Numbered from the stretch's first letter, positions 23,204 to 41,445 are shown. The stretch: 64,000 bases of DNA from an uncultured Candidatus Saccharibacteria bacterium (GCA_964464695.1 CAYXKW010000003.1:10577-74576); one strand, 5' to 3'. Notes: generated by a model from the letters alone, not told the origin. Program-made: numbers and translations.

Positions 23204-23326
23204 CTTTACATAAGAAGGAAATGTTTACTCAAAAATACTTCTTCATTAGAGAAATGAGCGCGTCACTAAGTTATCCTCCATTAAGTTATTGCCAGTAATT
23301 TCTATGCGCTATACTCTATATATACT

Positions 23327-24253
23327 ATGAACGAACAACAAAACATGACAACAAAGAAAGCACTCATTGTTGTTGGACTTTTTATTTTTTTACTTATGAT
23401 TACGCTTGTTGCTCCTGCAACCTGGGTCGGGGTTAAGCCAAAAAAACAAACTGGTCTTATTCTTAGAAATGCTAATGATTTCGCTGTTCTTTCAAAAGAT
23501 ACAGACAGAAATAATAACCCAGACTGGAAAGACCTTCTCATGCAGACAACAAGTGCGTCCACGACCGCTGTTGCAAATAAATATATTGTTACAGAAGCCG
23601 ACAAACAAAGACTTGATGACCCTAACAACATAACATCTTCTTTTTCTAAGAATCTCTACACAGTCTCTTCCTATGCAAAAAAGGCAGGGGACATGTCTAC
23701 ATCTGAACAAGAATCTATTGTAACAAGTCTAGTGACAAAGGAAGTACAAAAAATAGAGACTTCAGTGTATACATTTGATGACATTAAAGTATCAAGCACT
23801 GAAACCCCTACAAGTATTAGAGCGTACGGTAATCAACTTGGTACTATTTTTAAAAAGGCAACGAGTTTTAAGTTAGAGATTGTTGATGTAGACAAAATTC
23901 AAGCGTACAGTACAAATAAAGATCCTAATACTCTAGCTTCACTTGTTATTAAAAAAAATAATGCGAAGCTCATCTTAGAAGAACTTCTTAAAGTATCTGC
24001 TCCTAGATCAGCTTCGCCCTACCATCTCCTTATAGTTAACAGACTATCTGGGTATATAACTGTATTAGAAAATATGACTCAAGCTGAAAATGACCCTATG
24101 CGTGCAACGATTGCTTTTAATAACTATCTTCCAGCAATGAGATTACTCTTTTCATCACTATCAAATATGCAGCTGTATTTTAAGTTGTCTGATACCACAT
24201 TTTCTCAAAATGAACCTGGATATGTCTTAAATTCAGAGTATACTATCAAATAA
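23327..24253 (+). CDS. hypothetical bitopic membrane protein, first gene of the T4SS-like block
   Basis: N-terminal TM (ALIVVGLFIFLLMITLVAPA), then an about 280-aa extracytoplasmic domain. Confidence 0.45.
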   Translation: MNEQQNMTTKKALIVVGLFIFLLMITLVAPATWVGVKPKKQTGLILRNANDFAVLSKDTDRNNNPDWKDLLMQTTSASTTAVANKYIVTEADKQRLDDPNNITSSFSKNLYTVSSYAKKAGDMSTSEQESIVTSLVTKEVQKIETSVYTFDDIKVSSTETPTSIRAYGNQLGTIFKKATSFKLEIVDVDKIQAYSTNKDPNTLASLVIKKNNAKLILEELLKVSAPRSASPYHLLIVNRLSGYITVLENMTQAENDPMRATIAFNNYLPAMRLLFSSLSNMQLYFKLSDTTFSQNEPGYVLNSEYTIK

Positions 24254-24255
24254 CT

Positions 24256-25893
24256 ATGAAATATTTTTTCTTTCTTTTTTTCTTTCTTCTTAGCACAATT
24301 ACTCCAACGCAAGTTCATGCAGGCGCTGCAGGTGGAGGGTCTACTGAAGTTACACAGATTCTTAATAATGTTCAACTAATTCCTATAAACTACTCTGATG
24401 CAATTACAGCCTTTGCAACCAAAGGAACGTTTGTTAAAGAAGTTATTCTTAATCCAATAGCAAATGCTCTTATTTCCTCAGCTCTTGAAGGAGTTAGTAA
24501 TGATATTCTTTCATGGGTAAGTGGCGGTTTTGGGGGATCAGCACCACTTGTGATTGGTGACCCCGAGAGTTACATTAGAAACGCTGGTCTCGAAGCTGTT
24601 CGCGATAGTCTTTCTGGAATTCCAACTGATAGTGTTTTTGGGGACAGTATTTTTAATTCAATTCTTAACCAGTACAAAAACACAGACGACGTAACTGCTA
24701 CACTAAAAAATCTAAGCAAGTCTGATATTCCCTCTATTCTTCAGAATAATTTATGTACCGATGAGAAGTTGACGTCACTTTCTGTTGATGCGATAGCGGA
24801 CCAAAATGGTAACTATAACCAAGCAGATCTTACTGCCAAAAAAACAGAGCTGTGGAATTATGCATGTGCCGGAGATCCAGAGTCTAATCCACAAGTTGCA
24901 GCAAGGTTACAGGATCTTAATGATCAGAATCCATCAATTGGTGGCTGGGATACATATCTTGCTACAACAGGAGGAGACAATGCTTACACAAAAGGTGCAT
25001 TAGCAAAAAACGTCGTGAAAGAAGCCGACGAAATAAAAAAATCACTTGCTTCAAAAGAATTGTTTGATGGCGCAGGACCAGTGAGCGAGAAAGAATGTCT
25101 AAAGTTTGATGGAAATGTTAGTGAAGGTCAGATTGCAAAATGTTTACAATGGTTAACTACAACTCCAGGGGAACAAGTAGGGGATACTCTTACTGAGGCT
25201 CTCACCGCAGGAACTAAAAGACTAGAAAACATCATGGGGGACGGTTCATTAACTAACATGCTACAAGGTTTTGCTGTTTCTGCTATTACATCAGGCATAA
25301 AAAAGGCACTTAATTCATCTAGTGGTGGCTCACTCAATATTCCCATAGCCCTCCCTTCTAGTCGCCCAATAGTTCAAGACCTACTAAATGACCCACTTAA
25401 GAAAACTCAAAACTTACAGCCAATGGACAAGCAACTGGCATATTTCTCAACCTCACTAAACAACCTTGCGTCAATTGATAGTAGTTACATGACAGACCTT
25501 TTGTCTTATGAAGCGAAAATTGCCACCTTAAGTACTTGCGCCCTCGCATCCTCATACTACAGTAACAGAATGAGTAGAATCACTACTGCAAAAAGCTCAA
25601 TTATAGCAGAACAAGCAAAAATTGCTGAAGCAAAACTTCTTGTAACCGAAACCCAAACTAAGCTAAATGCTTCTGATTCATCCCAGGAACAAAGTACGAT
25701 TTTTAACGCCTATTTAACTGCTGTAGATGACAGAGGCCTTCCAACTTACCAAACAGAAGCAACTCGAGAAGCTGAGTACACCATCAACAAATTCAATGTT
25801 AGCCATGATACAGAATTGGGAACTTACCAGACACAGTGTGCTCAACAGCAGCAACAGCAGCAACCCAATCAAATATACGAAGGTAGCGGATAG
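24256..25893 (+). CDS. secreted hypothetical protein (545 aa)
   Basis: Signal peptide MKYFFFLFFFLLSTITPTQVHA. Q-rich C-terminus (QQQQQQQPNQ). Confidence 0.5.
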   Translation: MKYFFFLFFFLLSTITPTQVHAGAAGGGSTEVTQILNNVQLIPINYSDAITAFATKGTFVKEVILNPIANALISSALEGVSNDILSWVSGGFGGSAPLVIGDPESYIRNAGLEAVRDSLSGIPTDSVFGDSIFNSILNQYKNTDDVTATLKNLSKSDIPSILQNNLCTDEKLTSLSVDAIADQNGNYNQADLTAKKTELWNYACAGDPESNPQVAARLQDLNDQNPSIGGWDTYLATTGGDNAYTKGALAKNVVKEADEIKKSLASKELFDGAGPVSEKECLKFDGNVSEGQIAKCLQWLTTTPGEQVGDTLTEALTAGTKRLENIMGDGSLTNMLQGFAVSAITSGIKKALNSSSGGSLNIPIALPSSRPIVQDLLNDPLKKTQNLQPMDKQLAYFSTSLNNLASIDSSYMTDLLSYEAKIATLSTCALASSYYSNRMSRITTAKSSIIAEQAKIAEAKLLVTETQTKLNASDSSQEQSTIFNAYLTAVDDRGLPTYQTEATREAEYTINKFNVSHDTELGTYQTQCAQQQQQQQPNQIYEGSG

Positions 25894-25917
25894 TAACTTA
25901 CTTCTTTAGAAAATACT

Positions 25918-25947
25918 AAAAGTCACAAACAATTGTTTGTGACTTTT
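25918..25947. terminator. perfect 30-bp palindrome / terminator hairpin
   Basis: aaaagtcacaaacaattgtttgtgactttt. Confidence 0.5.
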
Positions 25948-26007
25948 AGTATTTTCTAATAACAACCAAACCCTTTCCTAACCTAACTATATGATACACT
26001 ACACATC

Positions 26008-28896
26008 ATGAAAAGACTTGTTGTACTGGTCTCTGTTATGGTATTTGCTGTAAGTATTTTCGGCTCTTTCCCTGTATTAAAAGTACACGCTCAAGCTGCA
26101 GCAGCAGAAGCAACTGTTACAAAACAAGACTTGTTAAATAGTGGTAATGCTGTGTTTAATACTTTTCTTGCGGAACTAGCACAAAGACAAGCTAATCCTC
26201 GACAAATCCCATCATTAACAACTGCTACAGACCAAGTAGTTGCCAACTATGTCTTAGGGGTATCAAAGTTAATTCCAGCGATCGTGGCTGCTCAAGGTAC
26301 TTTTGTTCAATTACTTAACACTCCTGCGGCTGCCTCTACAAATATCTTTGCTGATTACACTGCTGCACTAAACGCAGCACACTCGAGCATTAATCTAGCT
26401 CAATCAAATACTTTTGAAATAAGAACTGTTTCTCAAGTTCGTACAGAAGTAACCACAATTTCTACTAGAATTAGACTTGAATCTCAAAATCAACAGAGTG
26501 CTTTAATTAATAGCGGCCAGGGGAACGCTGCACTTGCTATACAAAGTGCAGTTGGAACACAAAGAACCCAGCAAGTTGTAAATGAACTAGAGAGTACCTG
26601 TAGCTTACTGAACATAATCTCATGCCTTGACCAGGCAACAAACTGGATTATAAAAAATATTCTTCTGGAGATTGCTGGATTTTTAGTTTGGGTGACTGCA
26701 AACATCTTTAATTATTCCGTCCAAATAGGAATTCTTAATTTTTCTAAGTGGGCACCTGATGCACTCTACCCGATATGGATCATCATTCGACAAATTATTT
26801 CTCTTCTTATCGTATTCATTGGTCTCTATCTTGGGTTCATGTACATTTTGGGTAAAGATGAGAAGTTTGCAAAGTACGTTCCATGGGTTATCGCATTTGC
26901 ACTATTTGTTAATTTCTCCTACCCACTTGTGAGGACTGCAATTGATCTTTCAAATATTGTCTCGTTAAAAGTGTATGTGAGCGCCATTGGTCCAGGAGCA
27001 TTGGATGCGAGCTTTTCATCAGAAAAAACAGCAGGGGCAATCATACGTGACAAGCTTGGTCTGCAAAGCTTGGCAGCTAACACAACAGCAACAGGAGCAA
27101 ATTCAAACAGTATCAGAACTGGACTAACTAGTACTCCAGCGTCGCTTATGGCACTATTTTTCACACTCTATGCTGCATACATTTTCTTTATGGTTTCCAT
27201 AATTATGGTCACTAGAACAGCTGCTCTTGTATTCTTAATTGTCGCTTCACCTCTACTGTTTGTAGACAGCGTTTTACCGATGCTTGGTGATAAAGCAATG
27301 ATGTTACGTAAAATATTTTTTGAGCAACTTGCAGTTGGTCCGATATTTATGATAATGCTTGCACTCACACTTAAATTTTTAGATGTCTTTCAAGTATCTG
27401 GCGCTTTTACCGGATTAAGTTCTGGAGACCAAACCATAAAAACATTCTTTAACCTTCTCATGATGCTTGTCATGTTACACATCATGATGACAGTAACTAA
27501 GAAAACAGCAGGTGCTGTTGGTGAGTTCGGAACCAAAGCAATGGGAACTGTTGGGGGATTTGCTCTAGGTGCTGCAGCTGGTGGCACAGGGCTACTTGCA
27601 CGAAAGGGTATTGGAGGGTTGGCTGCAAAAGCACGAGATAGCAAATGGGTAACCAACAATCAAGACTCATTCATTGGACGTCGTGCATATAATCTTTCCA
27701 ACTCTGTAGCAAATAGTACGTTTGATCTTCGTAACACTGCAGTTGCAGGCAAAATGGCAGGCATCGGCATGGGGATGGGGATGGGAGCAAAGCTTGGGTA
27801 CAGTGAAGAAACTAAAGCAAAAATGGAAGCACGAACAAAGGAAGCTCTTGCAAAAAGTGCAAGAATAAAAACTCATTATGAGAGAGACATGGTTAAAGAT
27901 AAGATTGGAGAGGACGGGAAAGTTGTCTATGAAGAAGTTGATGACGGTAAAGGAGGAAAAGTAAAAAGAAAAGTCCAAGAAGTAGTTCACAGAAAAGGGG
28001 ACGTGGATGCAGATGCTTGGAAGGCAAAAGACAGACTCATTACTGCGGCAGGGGGAGGTACTTTGTTTATGACCAAGAAACAAAAACAAGATCTGCGAGA
28101 CACACTTGGGAAAACACAAAATGAGGAAGCTTCAAAAAGAATTGCAGAAAATGAAGCAAACAGTACGAAAGATGCTCAAATATATAAGAGTATTAATGAA
28201 GAAGAAAGACTTCCTGATGGTAAAATCCTAACCATAAAGCAATCTAAGGCAAGATTCCTTGCAGGGCTTGAAAATGAACTTAAAACACTAGAAAAAACAG
28301 ACCCTACACTTCAAGGCAATCAAGCTCAGTCACTTATGAAAAGTATTCAGTCTATCAAAAAAACTGAAGCTGCTGAAAATGCTGCTTTTGACAAGCAAGT
28401 TAAAGATGTCTTCTTTAGTTATAACAATAAAATTGGAGCTGAGAGAGAGAACTATCTATCTAATCAATCAAAGGAAATTTTTGACGCAGTACACGCACTG
28501 AAAGATGAGGCGTTGGCAATAGATAAAGCAAGAGATGAGGCTCTGGATCTTGATTTAACCGGTACACCTGAGGAACGAAGAGTCTCTGGCATAGCTGCTG
28601 CTGCTAATCTTCGTGGACAAGTAGAATCAATACTTGCTGAGAAGGATCAAAATGGGGCAGTTCCAATTTATTCTTCTGCAGTCGATATTCCATTTGACGT
28701 GTCCACTCAGAGTTTTGCAGAAAAAGTAGCAGCTACACGTAAAGCAAAATTAAAACTAGCAACACAAGCAGCGGACGCCTATGTTCCTCCTCAGGTAACC
28801 CAACCTGATCCAGCAACTCCAATTCCTTCTGCTACCGCTCAGGCACCTTCAACCCCAGCCGCAAATGACTCCAAAAGTAACACAGCAACCGCATAA
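26008..28896 (+). CDS. TrbL/VirB6-like polytopic membrane protein with secreted N-domain and long Ala/Lys/Glu-rich C-terminal extension (962 aa)
   Basis: Signal peptide. About 7 TM helices between aa about 210-520 (IAGFLVWVTANIF..., IISLLIVFIGLYLGFMYIL..., VPWVIAFALFVNF..., SLMALFFTLYAAYIFFMVSIIMV..., FLIVASPLLF..., VGPIFMIMLALTL..., LLMMLVMLHIMMTV). Gly-rich GMGMGMGMG. C-terminal coiled-coil and P/A/T-rich tail. The topology and gene context resemble VirB6/TrbL. The assignment rests on pattern only. Confidence 0.45.
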   Translation: MKRLVVLVSVMVFAVSIFGSFPVLKVHAQAAAAEATVTKQDLLNSGNAVFNTFLAELAQRQANPRQIPSLTTATDQVVANYVLGVSKLIPAIVAAQGTFVQLLNTPAAASTNIFADYTAALNAAHSSINLAQSNTFEIRTVSQVRTEVTTISTRIRLESQNQQSALINSGQGNAALAIQSAVGTQRTQQVVNELESTCSLLNIISCLDQATNWIIKNILLEIAGFLVWVTANIFNYSVQIGILNFSKWAPDALYPIWIIIRQIISLLIVFIGLYLGFMYILGKDEKFAKYVPWVIAFALFVNFSYPLVRTAIDLSNIVSLKVYVSAIGPGALDASFSSEKTAGAIIRDKLGLQSLAANTTATGANSNSIRTGLTSTPASLMALFFTLYAAYIFFMVSIIMVTRTAALVFLIVASPLLFVDSVLPMLGDKAMMLRKIFFEQLAVGPIFMIMLALTLKFLDVFQVSGAFTGLSSGDQTIKTFFNLLMMLVMLHIMMTVTKKTAGAVGEFGTKAMGTVGGFALGAAAGGTGLLARKGIGGLAAKARDSKWVTNNQDSFIGRRAYNLSNSVANSTFDLRNTAVAGKMAGIGMGMGMGAKLGYSEETKAKMEARTKEALAKSARIKTHYERDMVKDKIGEDGKVVYEEVDDGKGGKVKRKVQEVVHRKGDVDADAWKAKDRLITAAGGGTLFMTKKQKQDLRDTLGKTQNEEASKRIAENEANSTKDAQIYKSINEEERLPDGKILTIKQSKARFLAGLENELKTLEKTDPTLQGNQAQSLMKSIQSIKKTEAAENAAFDKQVKDVFFSYNNKIGAERENYLSNQSKEIFDAVHALKDEALAIDKARDEALDLDLTGTPEERRVSGIAAAANLRGQVESILAEKDQNGAVPIYSSAVDIPFDVSTQSFAEKVAATRKAKLKLATQAADAYVPPQVTQPDPATPIPSATAQAPSTPAANDSKSNTATA

Positions 28897-28899
28897 CAT

Positions 28900-29643
28900 A
28901 TGAGTACACCATCTTACATCGCAACAAACCCAGATGAGCTCTTCGAAAAAGCTTCTGTAGAAATACAAGACTTAATTGCTGGTGGAGAAATTGATACTGA
29001 GATTAAATCTCTTAGTACTAAATATAAAATCCCTGAAGAATTCCAAACGCCTCTCTCTAACATTATTTCCTTTATTTTAATTGGGGCGATTGATACAGAT
29101 GATGTTGTTCAAGCACTTCAAGATCTTGTAAACATTAGTCTTGATGATGCAATTCGCATCGCAACTGACCTAGAACATGGCGTCCTCGAGAAGGCTCATA
29201 TATCTCTTCTTAAAAAATCTGACGACACTATTGCCACACTTGAATTCCAAGGAGAGAAATCTAAGACTGAGCTCAGGAAAGATATATTAGATACAACCAA
29301 AAGGGAATCTGCACTTGCTAAAAATCCGGTTCCAGTTGCAACAGCTCCAAAAAAACCAGCCACTATCTTAAAGCCTGGCTCTCGTTCACAACTTCTTGAA
29401 CAACTCCAGGTTCTAGGTACAATACCAAATGAAGAAGAGATAGCGACAAGAATTTCTCATATTCAAGAACAAATTACATCACTAAAAAAAGAGGAAGAGG
29501 ACAGTAGCCTTACCTCTAACATAGCACTTAAGAGTTTCATGTTTGGGGAAAAAGGAAAGGACATTGCGGATCAAACCATAAAAACAACCTACAGTGTTCC
29601 TCCAACACGATACACCGTTGATCCATACAGGGAAGTAGATTAA
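28900..29643 (+). CDS. hypothetical soluble acidic protein within T4SS-like block
   Basis: 247-aa ORF, no TM segment. The start ATG is 4 nt after the upstream stop. Confidence 0.45.
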   Translation: MSTPSYIATNPDELFEKASVEIQDLIAGGEIDTEIKSLSTKYKIPEEFQTPLSNIISFILIGAIDTDDVVQALQDLVNISLDDAIRIATDLEHGVLEKAHISLLKKSDDTIATLEFQGEKSKTELRKDILDTTKRESALAKNPVPVATAPKKPATILKPGSRSQLLEQLQVLGTIPNEEEIATRISHIQEQITSLKKEEEDSSLTSNIALKSFMFGEKGKDIADQTIKTTYSVPPTRYTVDPYREVD

Positions 29644-29846
29644 AACCCCGAAAGACACCAGATGTCGGACCGCTTTGCTAACAGACAGTCAGAAAAAATA
29701 CTACGTCACTATTATTTAATTCTAGTTTTATAGCCAGAAGTCTGACAGTCTGTTTGTCGGACGTCTGAATGTACTTGTGCCCACCAAACAAAACATGTGA
29801 GCTAAAGGCTACCGGCTAAAAGCTAAAAGCTGTATACTATATACAT

Positions 29847-30278
29847 ATGCAATTTCGAGTACCACAATTCATTGACCTAGAAGACAAAGTGTTTGGTCCT
29901 TTTACACTTAAGCAATTTGGATATCTTGTTGGAGCTGGAGGTCTTGCTTTTATCATTTGGACACTTATTCCAGTTAAGTTTATTGCAATGCTTATCATCG
30001 CACCCGTTGTTGGATTGTTCCTTTCTCTTGCCTTTGTTAAATTTAACAATAGATCATTTGGAGAAATTCTCCAGAGTGCTTTTAATTACTACACGGGTTC
30101 AAAAGTATTCACATGGCAACAACCTGCACCAAAAAAGAATGAGACGTCCGTTGACAGGGTGGTAGCAGACACTCAGAAAGAAATTATTATCCAGAAAACA
30201 AATAGGGATAAAATTCATGATATTGCTTTAGGGCTTGATGTGTACGAACATGCCAAGAACAAAGAAGAGGATAATTAA
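29847..30278 (+). CDS. PrgI/VirB3-like small membrane protein
   Basis: VPQFIDLEDKVFGPFTLKQFGYLVGAGGLAFIIWTLIP...IAPVVGLFLSLAFV matches the PrgI-family pattern (vPkdl..edK.l.G.lt.rQ...l..g...). It sits immediately upstream of the VirB4-type ATPase, as in Gram-positive-type T4SS. Confidence 0.55.
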   Translation: MQFRVPQFIDLEDKVFGPFTLKQFGYLVGAGGLAFIIWTLIPVKFIAMLIIAPVVGLFLSLAFVKFNNRSFGEILQSAFNYYTGSKVFTWQQPAPKKNETSVDRVVADTQKEIIIQKTNRDKIHDIALGLDVYEHAKNKEEDN

Positions 30279-30359
30279 ATTTATTGTTATAGCCTAAAAA
30301 ATATAAATTGTTAAGTACTGCACAGTTTTGAAGTACATTCTCATGTATACTGTACGTAT

Positions 30360-31001
30360 ATGGCAAAAGGGCAAGCAACACAGGAATTTGTACCAATCGA
30401 AAGAGTGCGTGATGGAATCGTAATCCTTAAGACAGGTGAAATTCGTTCTATCTTAATCACAAATTCACTGAACCTTGGACTTAAGAGTGAGGATGAGCAA
30501 CAAGCTGTACTTTCTCAATTCCAAAATTTTCTTAATTCTCTTGATTTTCCAGTACAATTTTTTGTTGAATCACGAAAGCTCAATATAAAACCTTATATGA
30601 CACTCCTTCAAGAGAGAAGCACACTTGTCAAAGAAGACCTTCTTAAAATTCAGATCCATGAATACATGGGGTTTATAACAAAGTTCACGGAAGAGAGTAA
30701 TATTATGACGAAACACTTCTTTGTAACGGTTCCATATTTTAACCAGAGTACTCAGACCATATCTACCAATTCGCTTATTAATTTAGCAGGGGCAAGTAGT
30801 AGTCAGCCAAAAAATATAGAAGACACCTTTGAAATGTCACGTATCCAACTCGACCAGCGTATTGCAACTGTTATTCAAGGGCTTTCACGATTTGGTCTGC
30901 GTGCACAACGACTTGGAACAGAGGAGGTTGTGGAACTTTTTTATAAACTATTTAACCCAGGAGAAGGAGACCGTACAGCTCCTAAGGCAGGACAACAATA
31001 A
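30360..31001 (+). CDS. VirB4/TraC/PrgJ-type ATPase, N-terminal domain, encoded as a separate ORF (213 aa)
   Basis: EFVPIERVRDGIVILKTGEIRSILITNSLNLGLKSEDEQQAVLSQFQNFLNSLDFPVQFFVESRKLNI is the conserved N-domain pattern of VirB4-family proteins. It ends at TAA 30999-31001. The downstream ATPase ORF starts 6 nt later in another frame. Confidence 0.6.
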   Translation: MAKGQATQEFVPIERVRDGIVILKTGEIRSILITNSLNLGLKSEDEQQAVLSQFQNFLNSLDFPVQFFVESRKLNIKPYMTLLQERSTLVKEDLLKIQIHEYMGFITKFTEESNIMTKHFFVTVPYFNQSTQTISTNSLINLAGASSSQPKNIEDTFEMSRIQLDQRIATVIQGLSRFGLRAQRLGTEEVVELFYKLFNPGEGDRTAPKAGQQ

Positions 31002-31006
31002 CAACT

Positions 31007-32836
31007 ATGGGACTATTTGATTTTTTAAACAAAAAGAAGGAAGAGCCGTCAGGTGGCTCACTTATCACACCCGTTCTTCCAGACCAGGTCTACAAAGTTG
31101 CGGAAATGCAGCTCAAAGATATCATCGCACCGAGCGCTCTTGAGATACAACCAAAGGCACTTAACCTTGGGACAACAATTGTGCGTTCATTTTTTGTTAT
31201 CTCATATCCTAGATACCTTACTGATAATTGGCTCAGTCCGATTATTAACTTAGACAAGGTGTTTGATATTGCAATTCACGTTGTTCCACTTAACACTGGC
31301 GAAATCATGAAAACATTCCAACGTAAAGTTGCGGAAGTGGAAAGTCAGATTATGATTCGTGATGAAAAGGGGCTCGTACGAGATCCAACACTTGACGTTG
31401 CCTACCAAGACTTAGAAGACCTCCGTGACGGACTTACTCAGGCTCAGGAAAAAATGTTTGAGGTCTCCCTCTACATCACACTCTACGGATATACAAATGA
31501 GGAACTTGATAAATCAGAAAATGAAATCAAAAATATTCTTGAAAGTAAGCTTGTCTACGTAAAACCAGCACTCTTTCAACAAGACACTGGTTTTGTTTCT
31601 ACTATTCCTGTAGGACAAGATCTTCTTCAAATAAAAAACAAACTAAACACTTCTCCTCTTTCATCTTTTTTCCCGTTTGTATCATTTGATCTTTCGTCAG
31701 ACAAAGGTATTTTATATGGACTCAATCGTCATAATGGAAGTCTCATTCTTTTTGATAGATATTCACTTGAAAACTACAACTCTATTGTTTTTGCAAAATC
31801 TGGTTCTGGAAAAAGTTATTTCACAAAACTAGAAATTTTAAGAACACTCATGTTTGAAACAGAAGTTATTATCATCGACCCAGAACGAGAATACGAATTC
31901 TTAGCTGAATCTGTTGGGGGAAGGTACTTTGATATTTCTCTTGTTGGGAATCACCACATCAATCCATTTGACCTCCCTCATCCAACACAAGATGAATCAC
32001 CGTCTGAAGTGCTTCGCTCGAACATTGTTAACCTCGTTGGGCTTTTCCGTGTAATGCTTGGAGGTCTTACTCCGGAAGAAGACGCAATTATCGACCAAGC
32101 TATTACAGAAACATATGCACTTAAAGATATTAATGGGGAAAATGACTTTACACGACTTGAACCACCACTTCTTTCAGACTTCGAAACAGTGCTTGAGGGG
32201 ATAGACGGGTCAGAAAGTTTATTACAAAGACTTTCTAAATATACACGTGGGACATGGTCTGGATTTATTAATCAACCATCTAATGTTGATATTAATAAAA
32301 AACTTGTTTGTTTCTCTATTCGAGATATGGAGGAAGAGCTCAAACCAGTTGCGATGTATATCATTACACACTTCATTTGGAATGCGGTACGAAAGCACCT
32401 TAAGAAGAGACTCCTTGTTGTGGATGAAGCGTGGATTATGATGAAAAATGATGACACTGCATCATTCCTTTTTAGTCTTGCGAAACGTGGAAGAAAATAT
32501 TATCTTGGACTTGCCACAATCACTCAAGACGTTGGGGACTTCCTCAAGTCACCGTACGGTCTACCTATTATTACCAACTCCTCGATTCAGATTCTCCTTA
32601 AACAATCTCCTTCATCAATTGATATCGTTCAAAAAACATTTAACCTTACCAATGAAGAAAAATATCTACTCCTGGAGTCCGGTGTCGGAGAGGGCATATT
32701 CTTTGCAGGACTAAAGCATGTGGCCATAAAAGTGGTAGCTTCATATACTGAGGACCAAATTATTACTAGTGACCCTTCTCAACTTCTTAAAATCCAGAAG
32801 ATGAAAGAAGAAGTTTCAGAATCAAAAGGTGTATGA
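31007..32836 (+). CDS. VirB4/TraC/PrgJ-type type IV secretion ATPase, ATPase domain (609 aa)
   Basis: Walker A FAKSGSGKSYFT. Walker B LLVVDEAWIMM. Conserved LATITQDVGDF and IFFAG motifs of VirB4-family ATPases. Confidence 0.8.
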   Translation: MGLFDFLNKKKEEPSGGSLITPVLPDQVYKVAEMQLKDIIAPSALEIQPKALNLGTTIVRSFFVISYPRYLTDNWLSPIINLDKVFDIAIHVVPLNTGEIMKTFQRKVAEVESQIMIRDEKGLVRDPTLDVAYQDLEDLRDGLTQAQEKMFEVSLYITLYGYTNEELDKSENEIKNILESKLVYVKPALFQQDTGFVSTIPVGQDLLQIKNKLNTSPLSSFFPFVSFDLSSDKGILYGLNRHNGSLILFDRYSLENYNSIVFAKSGSGKSYFTKLEILRTLMFETEVIIIDPEREYEFLAESVGGRYFDISLVGNHHINPFDLPHPTQDESPSEVLRSNIVNLVGLFRVMLGGLTPEEDAIIDQAITETYALKDINGENDFTRLEPPLLSDFETVLEGIDGSESLLQRLSKYTRGTWSGFINQPSNVDINKKLVCFSIRDMEEELKPVAMYIITHFIWNAVRKHLKKRLLVVDEAWIMMKNDDTASFLFSLAKRGRKYYLGLATITQDVGDFLKSPYGLPIITNSSIQILLKQSPSSIDIVQKTFNLTNEEKYLLLESGVGEGIFFAGLKHVAIKVVASYTEDQIITSDPSQLLKIQKMKEEVSESKGV

Positions 32837-33804
32837 AAAAAATAATCACCTCATTTCTTTTTTTTGGAGCTGCATTAGTATGTTCTTTATCACTAACACA
32901 TGCTCAAGTTTCTGCCACAATTGAGCTGTACCCAAAAAACCCAGAACCAAAAAGTGATGTAACACTTACCTTTAAAAGTTATTCATTTGATGCAAATACA
33001 GCTTCTCTTGTTTGGACAGTAAATGGTAAAAAGGTTCTTGAAGGGGAAGGGGAAACAAAACTAATAGTAAGAACAGGGGAGGTTGGCGACGCTATAACTG
33101 TTACCGTCAGAGCATCCACGCAGGGCGGGTTTACTACTGCTCAGTCAATAACTGTTACCCCAGCATCAGTTATGATAATGTATGAATCACCAAAAAGTTA
33201 TGTTCCACTTCTGTATGAAGGTAAATCTCTTCCAGGTGAGGGGGCTTTAATCCGAGTATCAGCATTTCCTTCTATCGGAGATAGCGGAGGAATAACACCT
33301 CCTTCAAAACTTTCATATACATGGTACATCAATGACACTCTTTTTAAAGATGTCTCGGGCGCCGGTAAACAGTCTGCTCTTATTAGATTGGACTATCTTC
33401 AGTCAAAAAATACCATAAAAGTTATAGTACGTAGCCCATCAGGTGCTTCTGCAGAAAAAACTATCACTATCTATCCCCATGCGGTCATGCCACTTTTGTA
33501 TACCTTTGACAGTGTTCTTGGGGTAAATTACACAAAATTAATTGATAAACGTTTTGAGACAGTGAATGAATTTATTGTCTCACTTGAGCCATTTTATGTT
33601 TCTGATGAAGAAACAAAGAGGGCATCATTTGTTTGGTATTTGGATGGTTTTCCTTCTACTCCACTTGGAGGAAGAATCCTTGCTCTTCAACCAAAAGAAA
33701 ATAGTTACGGCACAAAAATGCTCAGTATTGATGTCTATGGAACTGACAAAAGACTTCAAAAAGCATCAATAAAAACTGAGCTTATTTTTGATACTAGAAA
33801 ATAA
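32833..33804 (+). CDS. secreted protein with three tandem about 95-aa Ig-like repeats
   Basis: Signal peptide MKKIITSFLFFGAALVCSLSLTHA. Three repeats each with the pattern ...Y.W.VNG/INDT...G..K...IRL......I.V.VRS..G..A...I.IYP..VMPLLY. Start overlaps the VirB4 stop (ATGA). Confidence 0.5.
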   Translation: MKKIITSFLFFGAALVCSLSLTHAQVSATIELYPKNPEPKSDVTLTFKSYSFDANTASLVWTVNGKKVLEGEGETKLIVRTGEVGDAITVTVRASTQGGFTTAQSITVTPASVMIMYESPKSYVPLLYEGKSLPGEGALIRVSAFPSIGDSGGITPPSKLSYTWYINDTLFKDVSGAGKQSALIRLDYLQSKNTIKVIVRSPSGASAEKTITIYPHAVMPLLYTFDSVLGVNYTKLIDKRFETVNEFIVSLEPFYVSDEETKRASFVWYLDGFPSTPLGGRILALQPKENSYGTKMLSIDVYGTDKRLQKASIKTELIFDTRK

Positions 33805-33857
33805 AAACCATACACCTTCTTTGAAGATGGGTATTTGTTGATATACTACACACAAAC

Positions 33858-34718
33858 ATGGCCTCATATACGCAACTCGAACCTGCTGCATTTCAATCAT
33901 TGGGAATAACTACTAACACTTCCTTTAATGGCGCAGATGTTTCATTCTTCACCACAACCTCCTTTCTCTATACCTTATGTTTTATTGCAATAGTAGGAGC
34001 TGCATTTTATAGATATGTACTTGTAGGGGTATACAGAATGGAAGCGTCCGAGAGTGGAATACGAAAGAGTAATGAGACATTTAAAAAGACGACTCTTGGA
34101 TTACTTGGGGTGTTCGCACTTTTTTTGATTATTGCGACGTTGAATAGTCAGTTGTTGACGGGGAATGTGGGATTAGAGGAACTTCAATCAAAACCTGCAG
34201 CCCCTGCAGCACCAGTTACTCAGTCATCCGGAGGAACGACAGGAACAAATCCCATTGCACAAGCTCCTTCTGGAGTAACAAATCCTACAATTCCAACTAA
34301 CAATAATGACCCCGTAGGTTGGGGGGCAATTAGTGCTGATCCAGTTGTAAGAACCCAGTTAAGATCATTGCCAAATGGTGGAATAACCGTAAACAAGAAT
34401 GTTTGCCAAGCTCCAACCCTAACCCAATGCACAACAGTTGGTGGTTGGCCAGCAGAAACTCCTTCAATGTTGGCTACATTAAGACAGACTTGTGGTGGTA
34501 ATATTGAAGTTACAGGAGGGACTGAAGCTGGACACTCATCACACGGACCTGGTAGAACAGCCGTTGATCTTTCGTTAAATGACTCAACTCTCGAAGCTTG
34601 TATTAGATCTTTTCCTGTTGGACCTCAAAAAAGTTTCTGTAGGGTCACCTATATTAAATTTGGTTATCTTTTTTGTGATGAGTTAGGTGTTAGACATTGG
34701 CACGTTTACCAACAGTAG
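33858..34718 (+). CDS. membrane protein: two-helix (pilin-like) N-terminal module fused to M15-like (LAS-type) zinc peptidase domain
   Basis: Two TM helices separated by loop RMEASESGIRKSNETFKKTT. The C-domain has SSHGPGRTAVDL (close to the LAS/M15 S.H..G.A.D motif) and a terminal HWH (H.H). The N-module is nucleotide-identical to the paralog at 36091-37077. Confidence 0.5.
   Translation: MASYTQLEPAAFQSLGITTNTSFNGADVSFFTTTSFLYTLCFIAIVGAAFYRYVLVGVYRMEASESGIRKSNETFKKTTLGLLGVFALFLIIATLNSQLLTGNVGLEELQSKPAAPAAPVTQSSGGTTGTNPIAQAPSGVTNPTIPTNNNDPVGWGAISADPVVRTQLRSLPNGGITVNKNVCQAPTLTQCTTVGGWPAETPSMLATLRQTCGGNIEVTGGTEAGHSSHGPGRTAVDLSLNDSTLEACIRSFPVGPQKSFCRVTYIKFGYLFCDELGVRHWHVYQQ
33935..34172 (+). repeat. 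238-bp segment, 100% identical to 36165-36402 (direct repeat inside two paralogous genes)
   Basis: Read directly. gatgtttcattcttcaccacaacc...gggaatgtggga is identical in both copies. Flanks diverge immediately. Confidence 0.9.
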
Positions 34719-34792
34719 AATCAGACAGCTGCCACTATGCTCTATAGCTAGAGTTCTCTCAGTTCTGTTATAATCTCTGCTATACTTCTCAT

Positions 34793-36088
34793 ATGGAAAA
34801 TAATAGTAATCGTCGAATACTTTTTGCAGTTGGGTTCGTTATGTTTTTTTCGGTGATTATTATTATTTGGTACTTTTTTTATGCTAAACCAATAATTGCC
34901 CCAACACTTTCTGAGACAAATAATCCTTTTCCTGTTAAACAACTTCCTCCACGATTTCAATTTCTTAACTGGGGAGGGGAAGCTTCCACTTCAACAACAG
35001 AAGTAACTGATCCACTTTCTGTACCACTTGTGAGAATTTGGGATAAGCCAGCAACAGGTCAAACATTTATTACTCAAAATATACTACAAGAAATTACTTC
35101 AACAAGCACAGAGGGGACAACAACTATACAAGTAAAGAAAACAGTTCGTGCCACTTCAACGGTTGTTTTATTCGTTGACAGAACTACCGGATACATATAC
35201 GGATATCCAGTAGAAACAGGAAAACCTTACCAGATAAGTAACACAATTCTACCTGGAATACATGATGCTTACTTTTTTGAAAATGGTAAAAAAGTAATCA
35301 TGAGATATCTTGACCAAGATAAGAATAGGATAGTCGGAGTAATTGGCACACTCCCAAATGTTAAAGATAACGAAATGGCTTTACCTCTTACAAATATTCA
35401 ATACCTATCATCTCAAGTGACCAGTATTGCAACTAACGAAAAGAAAGATACAATTTCTTATATTGTTGCAAATGACAATGGAAGTGCTATATACACAATC
35501 GGAACTAAAGGCCCTGTTCTTGTAACCTCATCACCATTTAAAGAATGGGAGCTCTCCTACGGAGGGGATTCTCTCTACGTAACGACAAAACCTTCAGCAT
35601 ATAGTAACGGTGTAACCTTATCAGTTCCGTCATTTCAGCCTGAAATAACTGAGAAGACAGGTCTACTAAGTACCCCGACTTCTGGAAAAGTAATGTTACA
35701 CAGCATGTGGGGGTCTCAAGGACTTGCAACATTTATATCAGATGTATCTGGTATAAAGATACTCAATATAAAAACACTGGCGTCCAAATGTTCATGGGGT
35801 GAGAGAAAATTTTTAGTGTGTGCTGTTCCACGAATACTCCCTCGAGCAGTTGAAGGGTTACCTGATGACTGGTACCAAGGGAGGGTTTCATTTACTGATG
35901 ATCTCTTTATTATTGAGCAAACAACGGGTGAAAAATATCCATTATACAATTTTAAAGATGATGATGATGGGGTTTTTGATGTTACAAATATTTCTTTTTC
36001 TACTGCTAACACGTATTTTAGTTTTAATAACAAAAAAGATGCAAGTTTGTGGATGATTAATACTTCACTTCTTGGTGGAGATCAATAG
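34793..36088 (+). CDS. hypothetical bitopic membrane protein with large extracytoplasmic domain (431 aa)
   Basis: N-terminal TM ILFAVGFVMFFSVIIIIWYFFYA. The rest is hydrophilic with many Ser/Thr. Confidence 0.5.
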   Translation: MENNSNRRILFAVGFVMFFSVIIIIWYFFYAKPIIAPTLSETNNPFPVKQLPPRFQFLNWGGEASTSTTEVTDPLSVPLVRIWDKPATGQTFITQNILQEITSTSTEGTTTIQVKKTVRATSTVVLFVDRTTGYIYGYPVETGKPYQISNTILPGIHDAYFFENGKKVIMRYLDQDKNRIVGVIGTLPNVKDNEMALPLTNIQYLSSQVTSIATNEKKDTISYIVANDNGSAIYTIGTKGPVLVTSSPFKEWELSYGGDSLYVTTKPSAYSNGVTLSVPSFQPEITEKTGLLSTPTSGKVMLHSMWGSQGLATFISDVSGIKILNIKTLASKCSWGERKFLVCAVPRILPRAVEGLPDDWYQGRVSFTDDLFIIEQTTGEKYPLYNFKDDDDGVFDVTNISFSTANTYFSFNNKKDASLWMINTSLLGGDQ

Positions 36089-36090
36089 GT

Positions 36091-37077
36091 ATGGTACAGT
36101 ATCAACCTCTCGAACCCTCCTCATTCCAGTCATTAGGAATTACTTCTCCTTCCTTCAACGGAGAAGATGTTTCATTCTTCACCACAACCTCCTTTCTCTA
36201 TACCTTATGTTTTATTGCAATAGTAGGAGCTGCATTTTATAGATATGTACTTGTAGGGGTATACAGAATGGAAGCGTCCGAGAGTGGAATACGAAAGAGT
36301 AATGAGACATTTAAAAAGACGACTCTTGGATTACTTGGGGTGTTCGCACTTTTTTTGATTATTGCGACGTTGAATAGTCAGTTGTTGACGGGGAATGTGG
36401 GACTGTCTGATCTTACTGTGAACGGTGTTAGATCTGGTGCAGCAGTAACCAATCCAATAAATACTCAAGTAAACACAGGCTCAGGGAGTGGTAGTAGCTC
36501 GCGATCGTGTGAAACAACCGAAGCAACAATCACTAAACTTACTTCCACTGGTGGTATTTGTGGTGGGACAGCATGTACTATTTTATCCGGTTGTAACTAC
36601 CAACAGTACTCGTCAATTATAGATCAAGAAGTTGCAGGTAATACTGATCTTAGAAAGATGATAATTGTAACTATGTGCAAAGAGTCTCGAGCGCAGGTAA
36701 ATGCTGCAGGAAATAATCCAAATGGAACGTTTGATTGTGGGCTAATGCAAATCAATCAACCAACTCCATGTGACGCAACTATTTTAAACCCTGCAGAAAA
36801 TATTCGTCGAGGAGTAGCACTTATGAAAGAAAAAATAAGACTTACTTCTCAAACATATCAAAATATACCTGCAGAAACTGGACCTTTTTCATCGTACAAT
36901 TGCTGTGCAAACGGCACTGTTCCAAATGCTCCAAGTGCTGATTGTACTACCGCTAATGGCTTTCCTTTTGCGATCCCTAAATGGGCATGTCCAATCAACC
37001 CAGGAGAGAGTTCTTCAAATATGTGTACTGTAAAAAATTACGCTTGTGAGCTGAGTGTCTGTATGAAGCAACTATAA
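36091..37077 (+). CDS. membrane protein: the same two-helix N-terminal module fused to a lytic transglycosylase (SLT) domain, VirB1-like function
   Basis: SLT signature MCKESRAQVNAAGNNPNGTFDCGLMQINQ...AENIRRGVALM (catalytic E-S, GLMQ). N-terminal 80 aa identical to ORF 33858-34718. Confidence 0.6.
   Translation: MVQYQPLEPSSFQSLGITSPSFNGEDVSFFTTTSFLYTLCFIAIVGAAFYRYVLVGVYRMEASESGIRKSNETFKKTTLGLLGVFALFLIIATLNSQLLTGNVGLSDLTVNGVRSGAAVTNPINTQVNTGSGSGSSSRSCETTEATITKLTSTGGICGGTACTILSGCNYQQYSSIIDQEVAGNTDLRKMIIVTMCKESRAQVNAAGNNPNGTFDCGLMQINQPTPCDATILNPAENIRRGVALMKEKIRLTSQTYQNIPAETGPFSSYNCCANGTVPNAPSADCTTANGFPFAIPKWACPINPGESSSNMCTVKNYACELSVCMKQL
36165..36402 (+). repeat. second copy of 238-bp identical direct repeat
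   Basis: See 33935-34172. Confidence 0.9.
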
Positions 37078-37159
37078 ATATATAAATAAAAAATTATCAC
37101 AGCAATCTGATGAGGTGCTTGAATACTTCACCTCACTTCTCCCGCTCTACAACACAAAC

Positions 37160-37186
37160 AAAAAACTACCTCGAGGTAGTTTTTTA
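37160..37186. terminator. bidirectional terminator hairpin between SLT-fusion gene and yidC
   Basis: aaaaactacctc-gaggtagtttttt, a perfect 11-bp stem with A/T tracts on both sides. Confidence 0.6.
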
Positions 37187-37218
37187 TATTACATTTAGAA
37201 ATTATCTGTAAAAAAACT

Positions 37219-38082
37219 TTATCTATGTTTTTTGTATTTCTTATTTCTCTTATCCTTTTTACCAGATGAGTGAATTTCTTCTTTAACTTCTTTAACAATT
37301 TCTAGCCCTTCTTCTTCAACTTCCTTAATAACATCAAATGCTTCACCTCTAATGAGAGGAGGGGCAAGGTGGGCCAATTTTCGCTTCATATGAACATCTA
37401 GAGCGTAACTTGCTGTGTTACTGATGAACCAGTAGAGGCCAAGGGCAGAGGGAAGAGCCATCGCTGAAACTGCGATAATAATTGGAAGAACATACAATAA
37501 CTGTATCTTCATAGACTTCATAAAATGAGCCTGGAAAGATTCTTTATCTTTATTATTCTGAGAGCCACTCATATCCATAGTTTGTGTCTGACGACGAGCC
37601 AAGAAATAGGAAGAAATGCCTGCAAGAAGTGCAATTACTATATTCTTTTCTGTTACGTCAAAAACACCAAAGGCTACAGTATGTAGAGATTCTGGGAAAG
37701 TCACAAATGAATAAATAGACTTTGGATCATCAATCAATCCTTTAGAGAAAACGATATAGAGTGCAATAAATATTGGAATCTGTAATATCATCGCAAACAA
37801 AGAAGAAAAAGGATTTATTTTCTGTGTTCTATAAAGTGCAACCATCTGCTTAGACGCACCTTGTGGGTCTGTTTTCTGCATTTCCTTAATCTTATTCATT
37901 TCAGGTTCAATCTTCTTCATCATGTACTGCGTACGAAGAGCAGACATGTTAAATGGAAGTAAAATTGCCTTTACAATAAGGGTTACAATAACAATTGCTG
38001 CTCCAATATCATGAAGAGGGACAAAAGTAAGTACTATAACAAGGAGGTTATAGACTGGTTCGTAAAATAGTGTGTGGAACAT
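37219..38082 (-). CDS. yidC: membrane protein insertase YidC (short form) with Lys-rich C-terminal tail
   Basis: LLPFNMSALRTQYMMKKIEPEMNKIKEMQKTDPQGASKQMVALYRTQKINPFSSLF is the canonical YidC/Oxa1 core. C-terminal KKDKRNKKYKKHR ribosome-binding-type tail. Confidence 0.85.
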   Translation of the reverse strand: MFHTLFYEPVYNLLVIVLTFVPLHDIGAAIVIVTLIVKAILLPFNMSALRTQYMMKKIEPEMNKIKEMQKTDPQGASKQMVALYRTQKINPFSSLFAMILQIPIFIALYIVFSKGLIDDPKSIYSFVTFPESLHTVAFGVFDVTEKNIVIALLAGISSYFLARRQTQTMDMSGSQNNKDKESFQAHFMKSMKIQLLYVLPIIIAVSAMALPSALGLYWFISNTASYALDVHMKRKLAHLAPPLIRGEAFDVIKEVEEEGLEIVKEVKEEIHSSGKKDKRNKKYKKHR

Positions 38083-38084: not shown

Positions 38085-38399
38085 TTAATGTAGTGTATCA
38101 AATGCTTTCTGTATTTCCTCCTGCAATAACCTAAAAGGGGCCGTTTGACTATTCTTTTTAGGATAAAAAATAAATGAGTAAGGAGAAGGAGGTTTGATTG
38201 TGATAAGTATACTAAATATCCTTCTTTTTATAAGATTCCTGTCTACTGCACGTTTTAAGGTTTTTTTTGAAGTCACACAGGCAACCTTTTGTGTTTGAAG
38301 GGTTACACCTGCAACATCAAATAATTCACCACGAAAAAAGACTTTTGGTCTTTTTTCGTTAAAATCTTCTTTAGTGAGTCGCTTCGACTTTGGAAGCAT
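38085..38399 (-). CDS. rnpA: ribonuclease P protein component
   Basis: LPKSKRLTKEDFNEKRPKVFFRGELFDV...KRAVDRNLIKRRI is the RnpA RNR-like motif. Position between rpmH and yidC. Confidence 0.8.
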   Translation of the reverse strand: MLPKSKRLTKEDFNEKRPKVFFRGELFDVAGVTLQTQKVACVTSKKTLKRAVDRNLIKRRIFSILITIKPPSPYSFIFYPKKNSQTAPFRLLQEEIQKAFDTLH

Positions 38400-40353: not shown

Positions 40354-41445
40354 ATGAAATTCGAATGTAAAGGAGAAGTGTTTATTCAAGCAGTTCAACA
40401 AGTGTCTCGAGCTAAGAGTAAAACTCAATCACAACAATCACTACAAGATATTCATATTGAGGTAATTAATCATCTTCTAACATTACGTGCTACTAACTTA
40501 GAATTATTCTGTGAGAAGAGTATTCCTGTAAAAGGAATTGTTAATGGTGCATGTTTACTACAAGGAGAAACACTTCTTAGAATTATTTCTACATTTAATT
40601 CAAAAGATATAACTCTTACCTGTGAAATTATTGATGGAGTTTTTACTATTACAACAGAAAAGGGGGTTATTGAAATAAAAACAACACCATATGAAGATTT
40701 TCCAACACTACCTTCTCAAGGTGAACAGATAGGAATTCTTCCAAAAGAATCTATTGATATGTTATTACGTGAAGTTTCTTTTTGTTCAGCAACAACAGAT
40801 ATAAAACCAGAAATATCTTCTGTGTATATTTATACAAAAGATAGTTCTATTTATGCTGTTGCAACAGATTCTTATCGCCTTGCAGAAAAAACAATTCCTA
40901 ATAATAATGATTTAGATTTTTCATTTCTTATTCCTCAAAAACACATTGGTGAAATTCTTCAAATTTTAAATGAAGAAGAAGGGGATATTATGATTTCTCG
41001 TAATCAGAATATTGTTACCTTTTCAGGAACAACTTTAACACTTTCTATCCATACTGTTACTGGTCATTTCCCTGATTACAGACAACTTTTTCCAAAAGAA
41101 TTTACTACAAATGTGCTTGTTTCAAAAAGTGAATTACAAAAAGCTCTTTTACTAACAACATTTTTTAATGAACAATATTCTCAAGTTGAATGTATTTTTA
41201 CAGAAAATAAATGTACTGTTCATAGTAAAAGTGAAAGAGTTGGACAAGTAACTCATACAATAGAAGTAAAAAAAGAAGGGGAAGATATCGAAGTAAAATA
41301 TAATAATAAATTCTTCTTAGAAGTTCTCCCTCATATTGAAGGTGGTCTTGTTACGTGTATGTTCACAACACCTAATAAACCACTATTTATTCAAAGCAAG
41401 CAAGATATTAGTTTTACGTATCTTTTGATGCCACTAAACAGATAA
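40354..41445 (+). CDS. dnaN: DNA polymerase III beta sliding clamp
   Basis: 363 aa. Three-domain clamp pattern. Position directly after dnaA. Confidence 0.85.
   Translation: MKFECKGEVFIQAVQQVSRAKSKTQSQQSLQDIHIEVINHLLTLRATNLELFCEKSIPVKGIVNGACLLQGETLLRIISTFNSKDITLTCEIIDGVFTITTEKGVIEIKTTPYEDFPTLPSQGEQIGILPKESIDMLLREVSFCSATTDIKPEISSVYIYTKDSSIYAVATDSYRLAEKTIPNNNDLDFSFLIPQKHIGEILQILNEEEGDIMISRNQNIVTFSGTTLTLSIHTVTGHFPDYRQLFPKEFTTNVLVSKSELQKALLLTTFFNEQYSQVECIFTENKCTVHSKSERVGQVTHTIEVKKEGEDIEVKYNNKFFLEVLPHIEGGLVTCMFTTPNKPLFIQSKQDISFTYLLMPLNR

Follow-up and report, generated by a model that had tools for sequence, protein, structure and literature searches.

What does a type IV secretion system (T4SS) do when the genes that would make it conjugative are not found beside it? 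The question is raised by a block of eleven genes on the plus strand, at positions 23327-37077 of a 64,000-nucleotide stretch of DNA (the window, meaning the whole of that stretch) from an uncultured Candidatus Saccharibacteria bacterium (GCA_964464695.1 CAYXKW010000003.1:10577-74576). We conclude that the block is very probably a vertically inherited, origin-proximal T4SS of the sort typical of Patescibacteria (Paceibacteria type), derived from MPF_FATA systems and with its conjugation role lost. Systems of this kind have already been published (2023-2025; PMC12102498, PMC10633639) and the block is no new kind of system. The original prediction, made from the sequence alone, had read it as a Gram-positive-type T4SS without local relaxase or coupling protein and unlikely to conjugate, which is also the published conclusion (PMC12102498; PMC10633639); as possible roles it named DNA uptake, adhesion or a pilus, a choice that sequence does not settle. 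That reading got the structure largely right, but it missed a TrsD-like protein, a pilin module shared by two enzymes and a 54-nucleotide (nt) palindrome, and it did not recognise the published system.

The VirB4 clade of Patescibacteria is related to MPF_FATA (Quinonero-Coronel et al. 2025, PMC12102498). TrsD, PrgI/VirB3, VirB6 and VirB2-like proteins are encoded near virB4 in these bacteria, VirB1 is tied to virB4 specifically in Paceibacteria, and dnaA, dnaN, rnpA and ksgA are frequent neighbours (PMC12102498). Relaxases are almost absent, and genes for type IV coupling proteins (T4CP) lie at a distance from virB4 (PMC12102498). The T4SS is essential in Southlakia epibionticum (SEML1_0006-0019; Wang et al. 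2023, PMC10633639), and the saccharibacterial system is without recognisable coupling and relaxase proteins (PMC10633639). The present block resembles this clade in combining VirB4, TrsD, PrgI/VirB3, VirB6, VirB2-like and VirB1-like components, in having no relaxase or T4CP nearby, in lying beside dnaA, dnaN, rnpA and ksgA, and in being chromosomal and widespread. It differs in that the VirB2-like modules form the N-termini of hydrolases and are homogenised within each genome, rather than being free pilins or arrays, and in a possible VirB5/TrbJ-like secreted protein.

Gene order, motor and ancestry

Translation of the window recovered all eleven co-oriented open reading frames (ORFs) of the block where they had been placed; they are called here A308, B545, C962, D247, E143, F213, G609, H323, I286, J431 and K328, or A to K for short. 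Spacers of 0-60 nt with several overlaps had been reported; in order they measure 2, 114, 3, 203, 81, 5, -4, 53, 74 and 2 nt, a range of -4 to 203 nt with just one overlapping pair. On the 5' side lie uvrD, ksgA and a gene for a 470-amino-acid (aa) multi-pass membrane protein (u470) with no significant Pfam match. The block is thus flanked by ksgA on one side and on the other by an origin gene set: yidC (37219-38082) and rnpA (38085-38399) on the minus strand, dnaA (38750-40087) and dnaN (40354-41445) on the plus strand. The G+C content of the window is about 38%, and that of the block equals that of its flanks.

Gene order was compared by tblastn of all window proteins against 80 loci in species-representative genomes, chosen by VirB4 similarity (68-95% VirB4 identity) and assigned to Paceibacterota, Nomurabacteria, Zambryskibacteria or similar. 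Most of the 80 genomes repeat the arrangement, commonly as ksgA, (u470), A, B, C, D, PrgI, TrsD-like, VirB4, H, I, J, K, yidC (minus), rnpA (minus), dnaA, dnaN. The core of C, PrgI, F, VirB4, H and J is retained down to 70% VirB4 identity, and A, B, D and K are detectable chiefly in the closer genomes. To judge from these comparisons, the recurrence is far beyond chance. That unrelated operons came to share an orientation by accident deserves next to no credence: the block is indeed broken up by some six promoter-like boxes and by gaps that reach 203 nt, but the components are functionally coherent and the same 11 families keep the same order across genomes with VirB4 identities of 70% to 97%, which refutes the idea. 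For the same loci median identity is 77% for VirB4, compared with 63% for DnaA, 62% for KsgA and 36% for DnaN; this gap, which the choice of loci by VirB4 may inflate, fits strong purifying selection on the T4SS motor. Chromosomal location and vertical inheritance follow from the fixed order from ksgA to dnaN, the G+C content shared with the flanks and the high conservation of VirB4.

The motor itself is G609 (31007-32836, plus strand), correctly predicted to be a VirB4 ATPase. It matches Pfam P-loop_TraG (E = 1.4e-25), AAA_10 and DUF87, exceeds the cutoff of the NCBIfam CD1110-type VirB4 model (376 bits against 325) and finds VirB4 (4AG5, 1e-37) and R388 TrwK (3e-8) in the PDB; its Walker A (GSGKSY) and Walker B (LLVVDEAW) motifs can be read in the translation. 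Similarity of this VirB4 to CedB is generic ATPase similarity only. The CD1110 match covers only profile positions 183-733. The gene preceding it encodes F213 (30360-31001, plus strand), for which the NCBIfam matches all fall below curated cutoffs: VirB4_plasma (1e-9, profile positions 102-239), TrsD (1.6e-7, 13-200 of 201) and CD1110 VirB4 (2.2e-5, 2-137 of 752). Since F213 matches VirB4 N-termini and G609 matches profile positions 183-733 only, VirB4 is split here into a motor and a TrsD-like protein that constitutes the detached N-domain. One locus (L068) seemed to have TrsD and VirB4 fused, which proved an artefact of a masked run of Ns. E143 (29847-30278, plus strand) is PrgI/VirB3-like, as had been proposed, on a match to PF12666 (E = 5.1e-10; 40.2 bits against a gathering cutoff of 27). 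Homologues of E143 and F213 are present in 76 and 78 of the 80 loci, respectively.

Relatives of G609 are overall 68-100% identical to it; more than 100 in public metagenomes are 87-100% identical, the few named ones coming from Parcubacteria or Pacebacteria metagenome-assembled genomes. Together with the taxa of the 80 loci, this marks the window as part of a CPR/Patescibacteria genome of the Paceibacteria type. Its best plasmid VirB4 matches are from Actinobacteria and Firmicutes, belong to the CD1110 family and share 28-36% identity, 36% being the maximum. A Gram-positive ancestry is indicated by these CD1110-type matches together with a gene order collinear with that of the Clostridium botulinum plasmid pCDC3875 (VirB6-PrgI-x-VirB4-x-SLT), which additionally has VirD4. 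The MPF_FATA systems as a group (pGO1/pSK41 trs, pIP501 tra, pCF10 prg, CTn2/CD11xx) have in common with the block a CD1110-type VirB4, PrgI, a TrsD-like protein, a membrane-anchored SLT hydrolase encoded 3' of virB4 and the order VirB6-VirB3-VirB4-hydrolase. The block departs from them in the absence of a detected VirD4, relaxase or oriT, in its split VirB4, in the presence of pilin-like modules, in a VirB6 without sequence similarity to the CD1112 type and in its chromosomal, origin-proximal and vertically inherited position.

Might DNA transfer nevertheless persist, with the block part of an integrated element whose T4SS conjugates or mobilises by means of a relaxase, an oriT and a coupling protein located beyond the block or the window? 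The core genes do descend from monoderm conjugation systems, yet their position from ksgA to yidC/dnaA is fixed in dozens of species and their G+C content is that of the flanks. The perfect 54-nt palindrome within the block is not conserved in sequence, strong stems being present in only some relatives and resembling RNA hairpins. A tyrosine recombinase is encoded at 7297-8664, but 15 kb away and with housekeeping genes between, and VirD4 homologues are found far from virB4 in many Patescibacteria genomes, whereas relaxases occur in just about 100 (PMC12102498). Relaxase, T4CP/VirD4 and VirB11, predicted to be missing, were not detected in the Pfam-scanned ORFs of the 64 kb, with four ORFs (57692-58369, 58386-59426, 59853-61007 and 61368-62417) inspected by eye only and several ORFs of 115-182 aa unexamined; nor, among the Pfam-scanned ORFs and those viewed by eye, does an integrase flank the block. 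We hold an integrated conjugative element to be very improbable. A Gram-positive-type T4SS with neither relaxase nor coupling protein encoded close by is unlikely to serve conjugation.

The VirB6-like protein and the two hydrolases

The VirB3-like and VirB4-like components would work with a polytopic membrane protein, for which C962 (26008-28896, plus strand) is the candidate. It comprises a signal peptide, a helical external domain of about 170 aa, 6-7 transmembrane (TM) helices and a charged, hydrophilic C-terminal tail of about 420 aa. The earlier description as a TrbL/VirB6-like 7-TM protein finds no backing in sequence families: there is no Pfam match at E up to 10 and no NCBIfam match at E up to 1, 120 relatives carry no Pfam or NCBIfam domain (TrbL/VirB6, PF04610 and the CD1112 type included), hhalign of the family against two annotated VirB6 proteins gives a probability below 1%, and sequence and profile searches of the PDB yield nothing significant. 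The label stands on a predicted VirB6/DotA fold, common to TrwI/VirB6, on topology and on the position of the gene 5' of prgI, as in pCDC3875. We therefore accept C962 as VirB6-like by predicted fold, not by sequence family.

Two enzymes encoded 3' of virB4 carry VirB2-like N-terminal hairpins. I286 (33858-34718, plus strand) and K328 (36091-37077, plus strand) contain the two copies of a 265-nt direct repeat (33908-34172 and 36138-36402, plus strand), 97% identical to each other, that encodes a two-helix membrane hairpin. The original prediction had described the two proteins as M15-like and SLT peptidoglycan hydrolase fusions. An AlphaFold2 model of I286, with a predicted local distance difference test (pLDDT) score of 86, places the hairpin at residues 30-95, followed by a disordered stretch that leads into a compact C-terminal domain (pLDDT above 95); the LAS-type metallopeptidase domain, of predicted M15/hedgehog fold, spans residues 150-286, and a Foldseek search with the model gave no match. 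Although no Peptidase_M15 hidden Markov model (HMM) match was obtained even at permissive E-values, H226, H229, D237, H280 and H282 are invariant or nearly so among orthologues, and with this conserved His/Asp/His set the predicted fold makes an M15-like label reasonable at the level of the LAS superfamily. The SLT-type lytic transglycosylase domain of K328 falls just below threshold (PF01464, E = 3.9e-4, 20.4 bits against a cutoff of 21.3), and many close relatives are annotated PF01464/PF18896.

The link between hairpin and VirB2 comes from relatives. In a 31-member alignment of I286 positional orthologues six match Pfam T4SS_pilin (PF18895), three of them above cutoff, and an independent hhalign comparison ties modules of the window type to PF18895-matching members (probability 96.5%, E = 8e-10). 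An HMM of the module, which finds K328 at 1e-41, detects only the I286 and K328 copies in the window and no free pilin gene, and in most related loci the module has a C-terminal extension of 160-235 aa. Within every one of the 18 genomes that have both genes the two modules share 80-97% identity; between genomes, a module and its best orthologue share only 37-72%. Near-identity within genomes and divergence between them is the signature of recurrent gene conversion, which would homogenise the two handles in each genome.

Other arrangements of the module are seen among more distant relatives. In eight loci (L041, L042, L044, L046, L047, L057, L072 and L080) it lies mid-frame in stop-to-stop ORFs of about 490-710 codons 3' of virB4, between an N-terminal extension of about 220-370 residues and an enzyme-sized C-terminal extension. 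Short free pilin genes may occur in four further loci (L050, L056, L077 and L079).

The fusion of pilin module and hydrolase, and its concerted evolution, find no account in the Patescibacteria T4SS papers PMC12102498 and PMC10633639. A bolder proposal, possible though doubtful, is that the VirB2-like 'pilin' of the Paceibacteria type, rather than being a free fibre subunit, is a common assembly handle on a LAS peptidase and an SLT enzyme, kept near-identical through gene conversion since both would need extraction by VirB4 and insertion into one stalk or short polymer with VirB6 and a VirB5-like B545. If true, this would amount to an enzyme-decorated, wall-drilling T4SS fibre, and to a monoderm T4SS with a full VirB2/VirB5/VirB6 stalk.

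The candidate VirB5-like protein and other lineage-specific proteins

Five proteins of the block (A308, B545, D247, H323 and J431) are lineage-specific, and four of the five are secreted or membrane-anchored. The first two open the block and are seen in translation as the bitopic protein and the secreted 545-aa protein that had been described. B545 (24256-25893, plus strand), with a signal peptide, conserved Cys residues and a weak family motif, is a candidate VirB5/TrbJ-like protein. Its family forms 275 representative clusters among 1.84e9 proteins; six Cys residues are invariant in 27 close relatives, and when 53 diverse members are compared two of the six never vary and the other four rarely do. 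Three separate TrbJ NCBIfam models match 6, 3 and 1 of these 53 members, and Pfam DUF4141 matches four. One member (P0507) exceeds the DUF4141 cutoff at residues 15-54 and has a TrbJ match over the same stretch; in another (P0508) the TrbJ/DUF4141-type match is located after the signal peptide. B545 itself has a TrbJ match of 6e-4 over 30 residues. The mature N-terminus reads, for example, VVIDPTNLIQN in distant members and TEVTQILNN in the clade of the window. DUF4141 proteins are listed beside traJ and traG in Bacteroides conjugative transposons (PMC10434189), and the B545 gene lies directly 5' of the VirB6-like gene, in the order virB5-virB6.

Other comparisons of B545 were negative: the family profile against the PDB, and hhalign of the family against the protein at the VirB5 position of a Granulicella plasmid. 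A tblastn search of plasmids with a B545 relative gave a single weak match (E = 0.3). A start 'LFGVGDIVFDP' supposed for RP4 TrbJ was not confirmed: family members with that motif do not match the TrbJ models. No account of the VirB5-like motif of this family was found in PMC12102498 or PMC10633639. A VirB5/TrbJ-like B545 is possible on this sequence evidence, and we treat it as a lead rather than a result.

With the Gram-negative MPF_T/P systems (R388 Trw, Ti VirB, RP4 Trb) the block shares the predicted TrwI/VirB6 fold of C962, VirB2-like hairpins and a possible TrbJ/VirB5-type motif just 5' of VirB6, matching the orders virB5-virB6 and trbJ-trbL. It differs from them in having no outer-membrane core (VirB7/9/10) and no VirB11, in its monoderm envelope and in hairpins that carry enzymes.

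A308 (23327-24253, plus strand) has an N-terminal TM helix and an external domain of about 270 aa. Homologues were detected in 31 loci, all just 3' of ksgA/u470 and 5' of the B545-type gene where that was detected, and there is no Pfam, NCBIfam or PDB-profile match. J431 (34793-36088, plus strand; homologues in 56 loci) is likewise bitopic, with a large external domain, a conserved LPDDWYQG and two invariant Cys residues, and has no family or PDB match. In hhalign comparisons with a VirB8/TrbF protein neither of these two bitopic proteins showed similarity. H323 (32833-33804, plus strand; homologues in 77 of the 80 loci) has a signal peptide and was correctly described as a secreted triple-immunoglobulin (Ig) protein: its three Ig/PKD-like repeats are of about 103 aa each, with W61, W164 and W268 invariant, the Pfam PKD_6 match is weak, and the family profile matches Ig domains of phage Hoc at 3e-4. 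D247 (28900-29643, plus strand) is soluble, without TM helices, and belongs to a conserved family (35 loci, median identity 52%) with an invariant C-terminal motif, P..Y..DPY.E, and no family or PDB match.

Expression signals, neighbouring genes and proposed function

How the block is expressed can be approached through recurrent -10-like boxes on the plus strand. They comprise TATACT 17 nt 5' of the A308 start (23310-23315), with a second copy at -6; TACACT (TGATACACT) 13 nt 5' of the C962 start (25995-26000); an extended box, TGTATACT, 14 nt 5' of the prgI start (29831-29838); TATACT (TGTATACT) 14 nt 5' of the F213 start (30346-30351); and the extended boxes TGATATACT 5' of I286 (33839-33847) and TGCTATACT 5' of J431 (34778-34786). 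A TA[TC]ACT box, mostly with a preceding TG, lies 12-17 nt 5' of the start codons of A, C, E, F, I, J, yidC, dnaA, dnaN and others; at least 16 of 44 genes have it at -17 to -12, where 0.2 would be expected, and a TGnTATACT-type box closes almost every D-prgI spacer in about 30 related loci. This pattern implies that leaderless or very short-leader mRNAs would be a common expression mode in the genome. Drawn from the TGnTATACT boxes 12-17 nt 5' of starts, the block probably forms about six short-leader transcription units: A-B, C-D, E, F-G-H, I and J-K. A generic sigma-70 promoter scan was uninformative, giving fewer matches than shuffled sequence, and the TGnTATACT analysis was used instead.

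The 54-nt palindrome (25906-25959) between B545 and C962 is a perfect 27+27-nt repeat whose RNA hairpin has a computed free energy of -34.8 kcal/mol (z = -10.4), with no T-run after it. About ten relatives have perfect stems of 11-20 bp, of unrelated sequence, some 30-250 nt 5' of the estimated start of the homologous gene. As an oriT it was rejected: its sequence is not conserved, no relaxase is found and it would be a very stable RNA hairpin. Such a hairpin after B could lift the levels of A-B over those of the downstream genes. A second hairpin, of 13-bp stem with an A-run and a T-run (37158-37187), lies between the convergent K328 and yidC genes, resembles a bidirectional terminator and closes the block.

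The spacer between D247 and prgI (29644-29846) holds a further conserved element, reading ...CCGCTT(T/C)GCTAACAGACA..., with its core GCTAACAGACA at 29677-29687 (plus strand). By locus comparison it occurs only in this spacer, in the window and in four of the closest loci (L002, L003, L004 and L007), and nowhere else in 83 loci; in L004 it forms an inverted pair around a variable insert. Possible identities are an operator and a miniature repeat element. In some relatives the same spacer has short tandem repeats (GACAACA, GACTTGAA). For the recurring hairpins after the B545 gene and the TGnTATACT boxes no account was found in PMC12102498 or PMC10633639.

Elsewhere in the window, the tyrosine recombinase gene (7297-8664, minus strand) adjoins three ORFs without family matches (3162-5228, 5329-5970 and 6066-7286), and housekeeping genes divide this stretch (3162-8664), possibly a small integrated element, from the T4SS block. 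A gene between uvrD and that of an M23/LysM peptidase encodes a mostly coiled-coil protein of 1438 aa with a C-terminal TM helix (13869-18185). Pfam gives it no credible match, and tblastn finds none in the 80 loci, most of which barely extend 5' of uvrD and so hardly cover the place where it would usually lie. The lone pilB ATPase gene that had been reported is indeed present at 48120-49985 (minus strand; PilB/GspE type, T2SSE 1.8e-113 plus MshEN), between ruvB and a GC-rich island and without adjacent pilus genes. The island (50200-52200, 50-58% G+C against 38%) encodes on its plus strand two secreted or membrane proteins, of 224 aa (50265-50939) and 331 aa (51125-52120), with a common C-terminal motif, TCN..G.I.ETV.T.DDA.C..WT. 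Pfam matches neither the 331-aa ORF nor a minus-strand ORF (50055-51032) that overlaps the 224-aa ORF, and Rfam over 49900-52400 gives one weak, sub-threshold match (52127-52186). The many overlapping ORFs on both strands of the island are a by-product of its high G+C content. In a 785-aa ORF at 52304-54661, with no Pfam match, GC skew is strongly negative (-0.26 to -0.46) for at least the first ~700 nt (52400-52999).

What, then, might the machine do? Its cytoplasmic-membrane core consists of the split VirB4 (TrsD-like N-domain and motor), PrgI/VirB3 and the polytopic protein of predicted VirB6 fold. VirB4, with its detached N-domain, would dock on the platform of PrgI/VirB3 and the VirB6-like protein and use ATP to pull the pilin-like hairpins of the two hydrolases from the membrane; by analogy with the handling of VirB2 by VirB4 and VirB6 in Gram-negatives, the hairpins might then be positioned or polymerised at the VirB6 platform. 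A peptide-cutting and a glycan-cutting enzyme would thereby be placed where the apparatus crosses the wall, the cell's own and possibly that of a host. B545 (possibly VirB5-like), H323, J431 and A308 could form an extracellular, host-contacting part, making the machine a contact-dependent conduit between epibiont and host. Host macromolecule uptake or effector export is favoured over DNA conjugation. A 2025 review discusses a possible pilus or conduit role (PMC12857230).

Uptake of DNA in particular can be considered in the light of cultivated relatives and of known systems. In a Saccharibacterium the T4SS is essential and comEC-dependent DNA uptake is not (PMC10633639; PMC12857230); by analogy, ComEC-dependent competence is therefore disfavoured as the essential role, and ComEC-independent import stays compatible. 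A dedicated import machine, taking up host or environmental DNA for nucleotides, would have precedents in Helicobacter pylori ComB and archaeal Ced, which like the block do not rely on a relaxase; the parts of Ced include a VirB4-like ATPase, VirB2-like pilins and a protein resembling VirB6. The block differs from both in showing no sign of DNA handling, and we consider this role unlikely.

Another suggestion dispenses with translocation altogether: VirB4 would drive assembly of a surface fibre or adhesin, coupled to local wall remodelling, for instance in epibiont attachment or division. The only recognisable VirB4 'substrates' are indeed the two pilin-anchored hydrolases, several secreted or Ig-like proteins are encoded and no coupling protein was found, yet a channel-platform protein of predicted VirB6 fold and VirB3 have been kept and are highly conserved, and separate type IV pili (PilB, 48120-49985) already give adhesion and motility in cultivated relatives (PMC10633639). 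Such a translocation-free fibre thus strikes us as distinctly improbable.

Several points weigh against the reading of the block as a vertically inherited, no longer conjugative Patescibacteria T4SS with the parts described. A coupling protein may lie elsewhere in the genome. Essentiality in the clade was tested in Saccharimonadia only, and comes from a Saccharibacterium whose cluster differs in having free pilin arrays, so that function in a Paceibacterium is argued by analogy. The VirB2-like modules in the clade of the window lack a signal peptide and might do no more than anchor the proteins in the membrane. Comparison of A308 and J431 with VirB8/TrbF revealed no VirB8-like subunit, and the motif that links B545 to VirB5 is about 30 residues long and confined to a minority of family members, with negative profile comparisons. 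The roles of promoter boxes and hairpins we infer from sequence patterns.

The T4SS is among the few conserved envelope machines of the Patescibacteria, a huge and mostly uncultured radiation, and no other T4SS had earlier been shown to be essential to the bacterium that carries it. For the Paceibacteria, the largest class, the present locus offers leads on how the machine may be built: hydrolases on pilin-like handles that evolve in concert, a possible VirB5-like partner for VirB6 and an outline of the probable transcription units.

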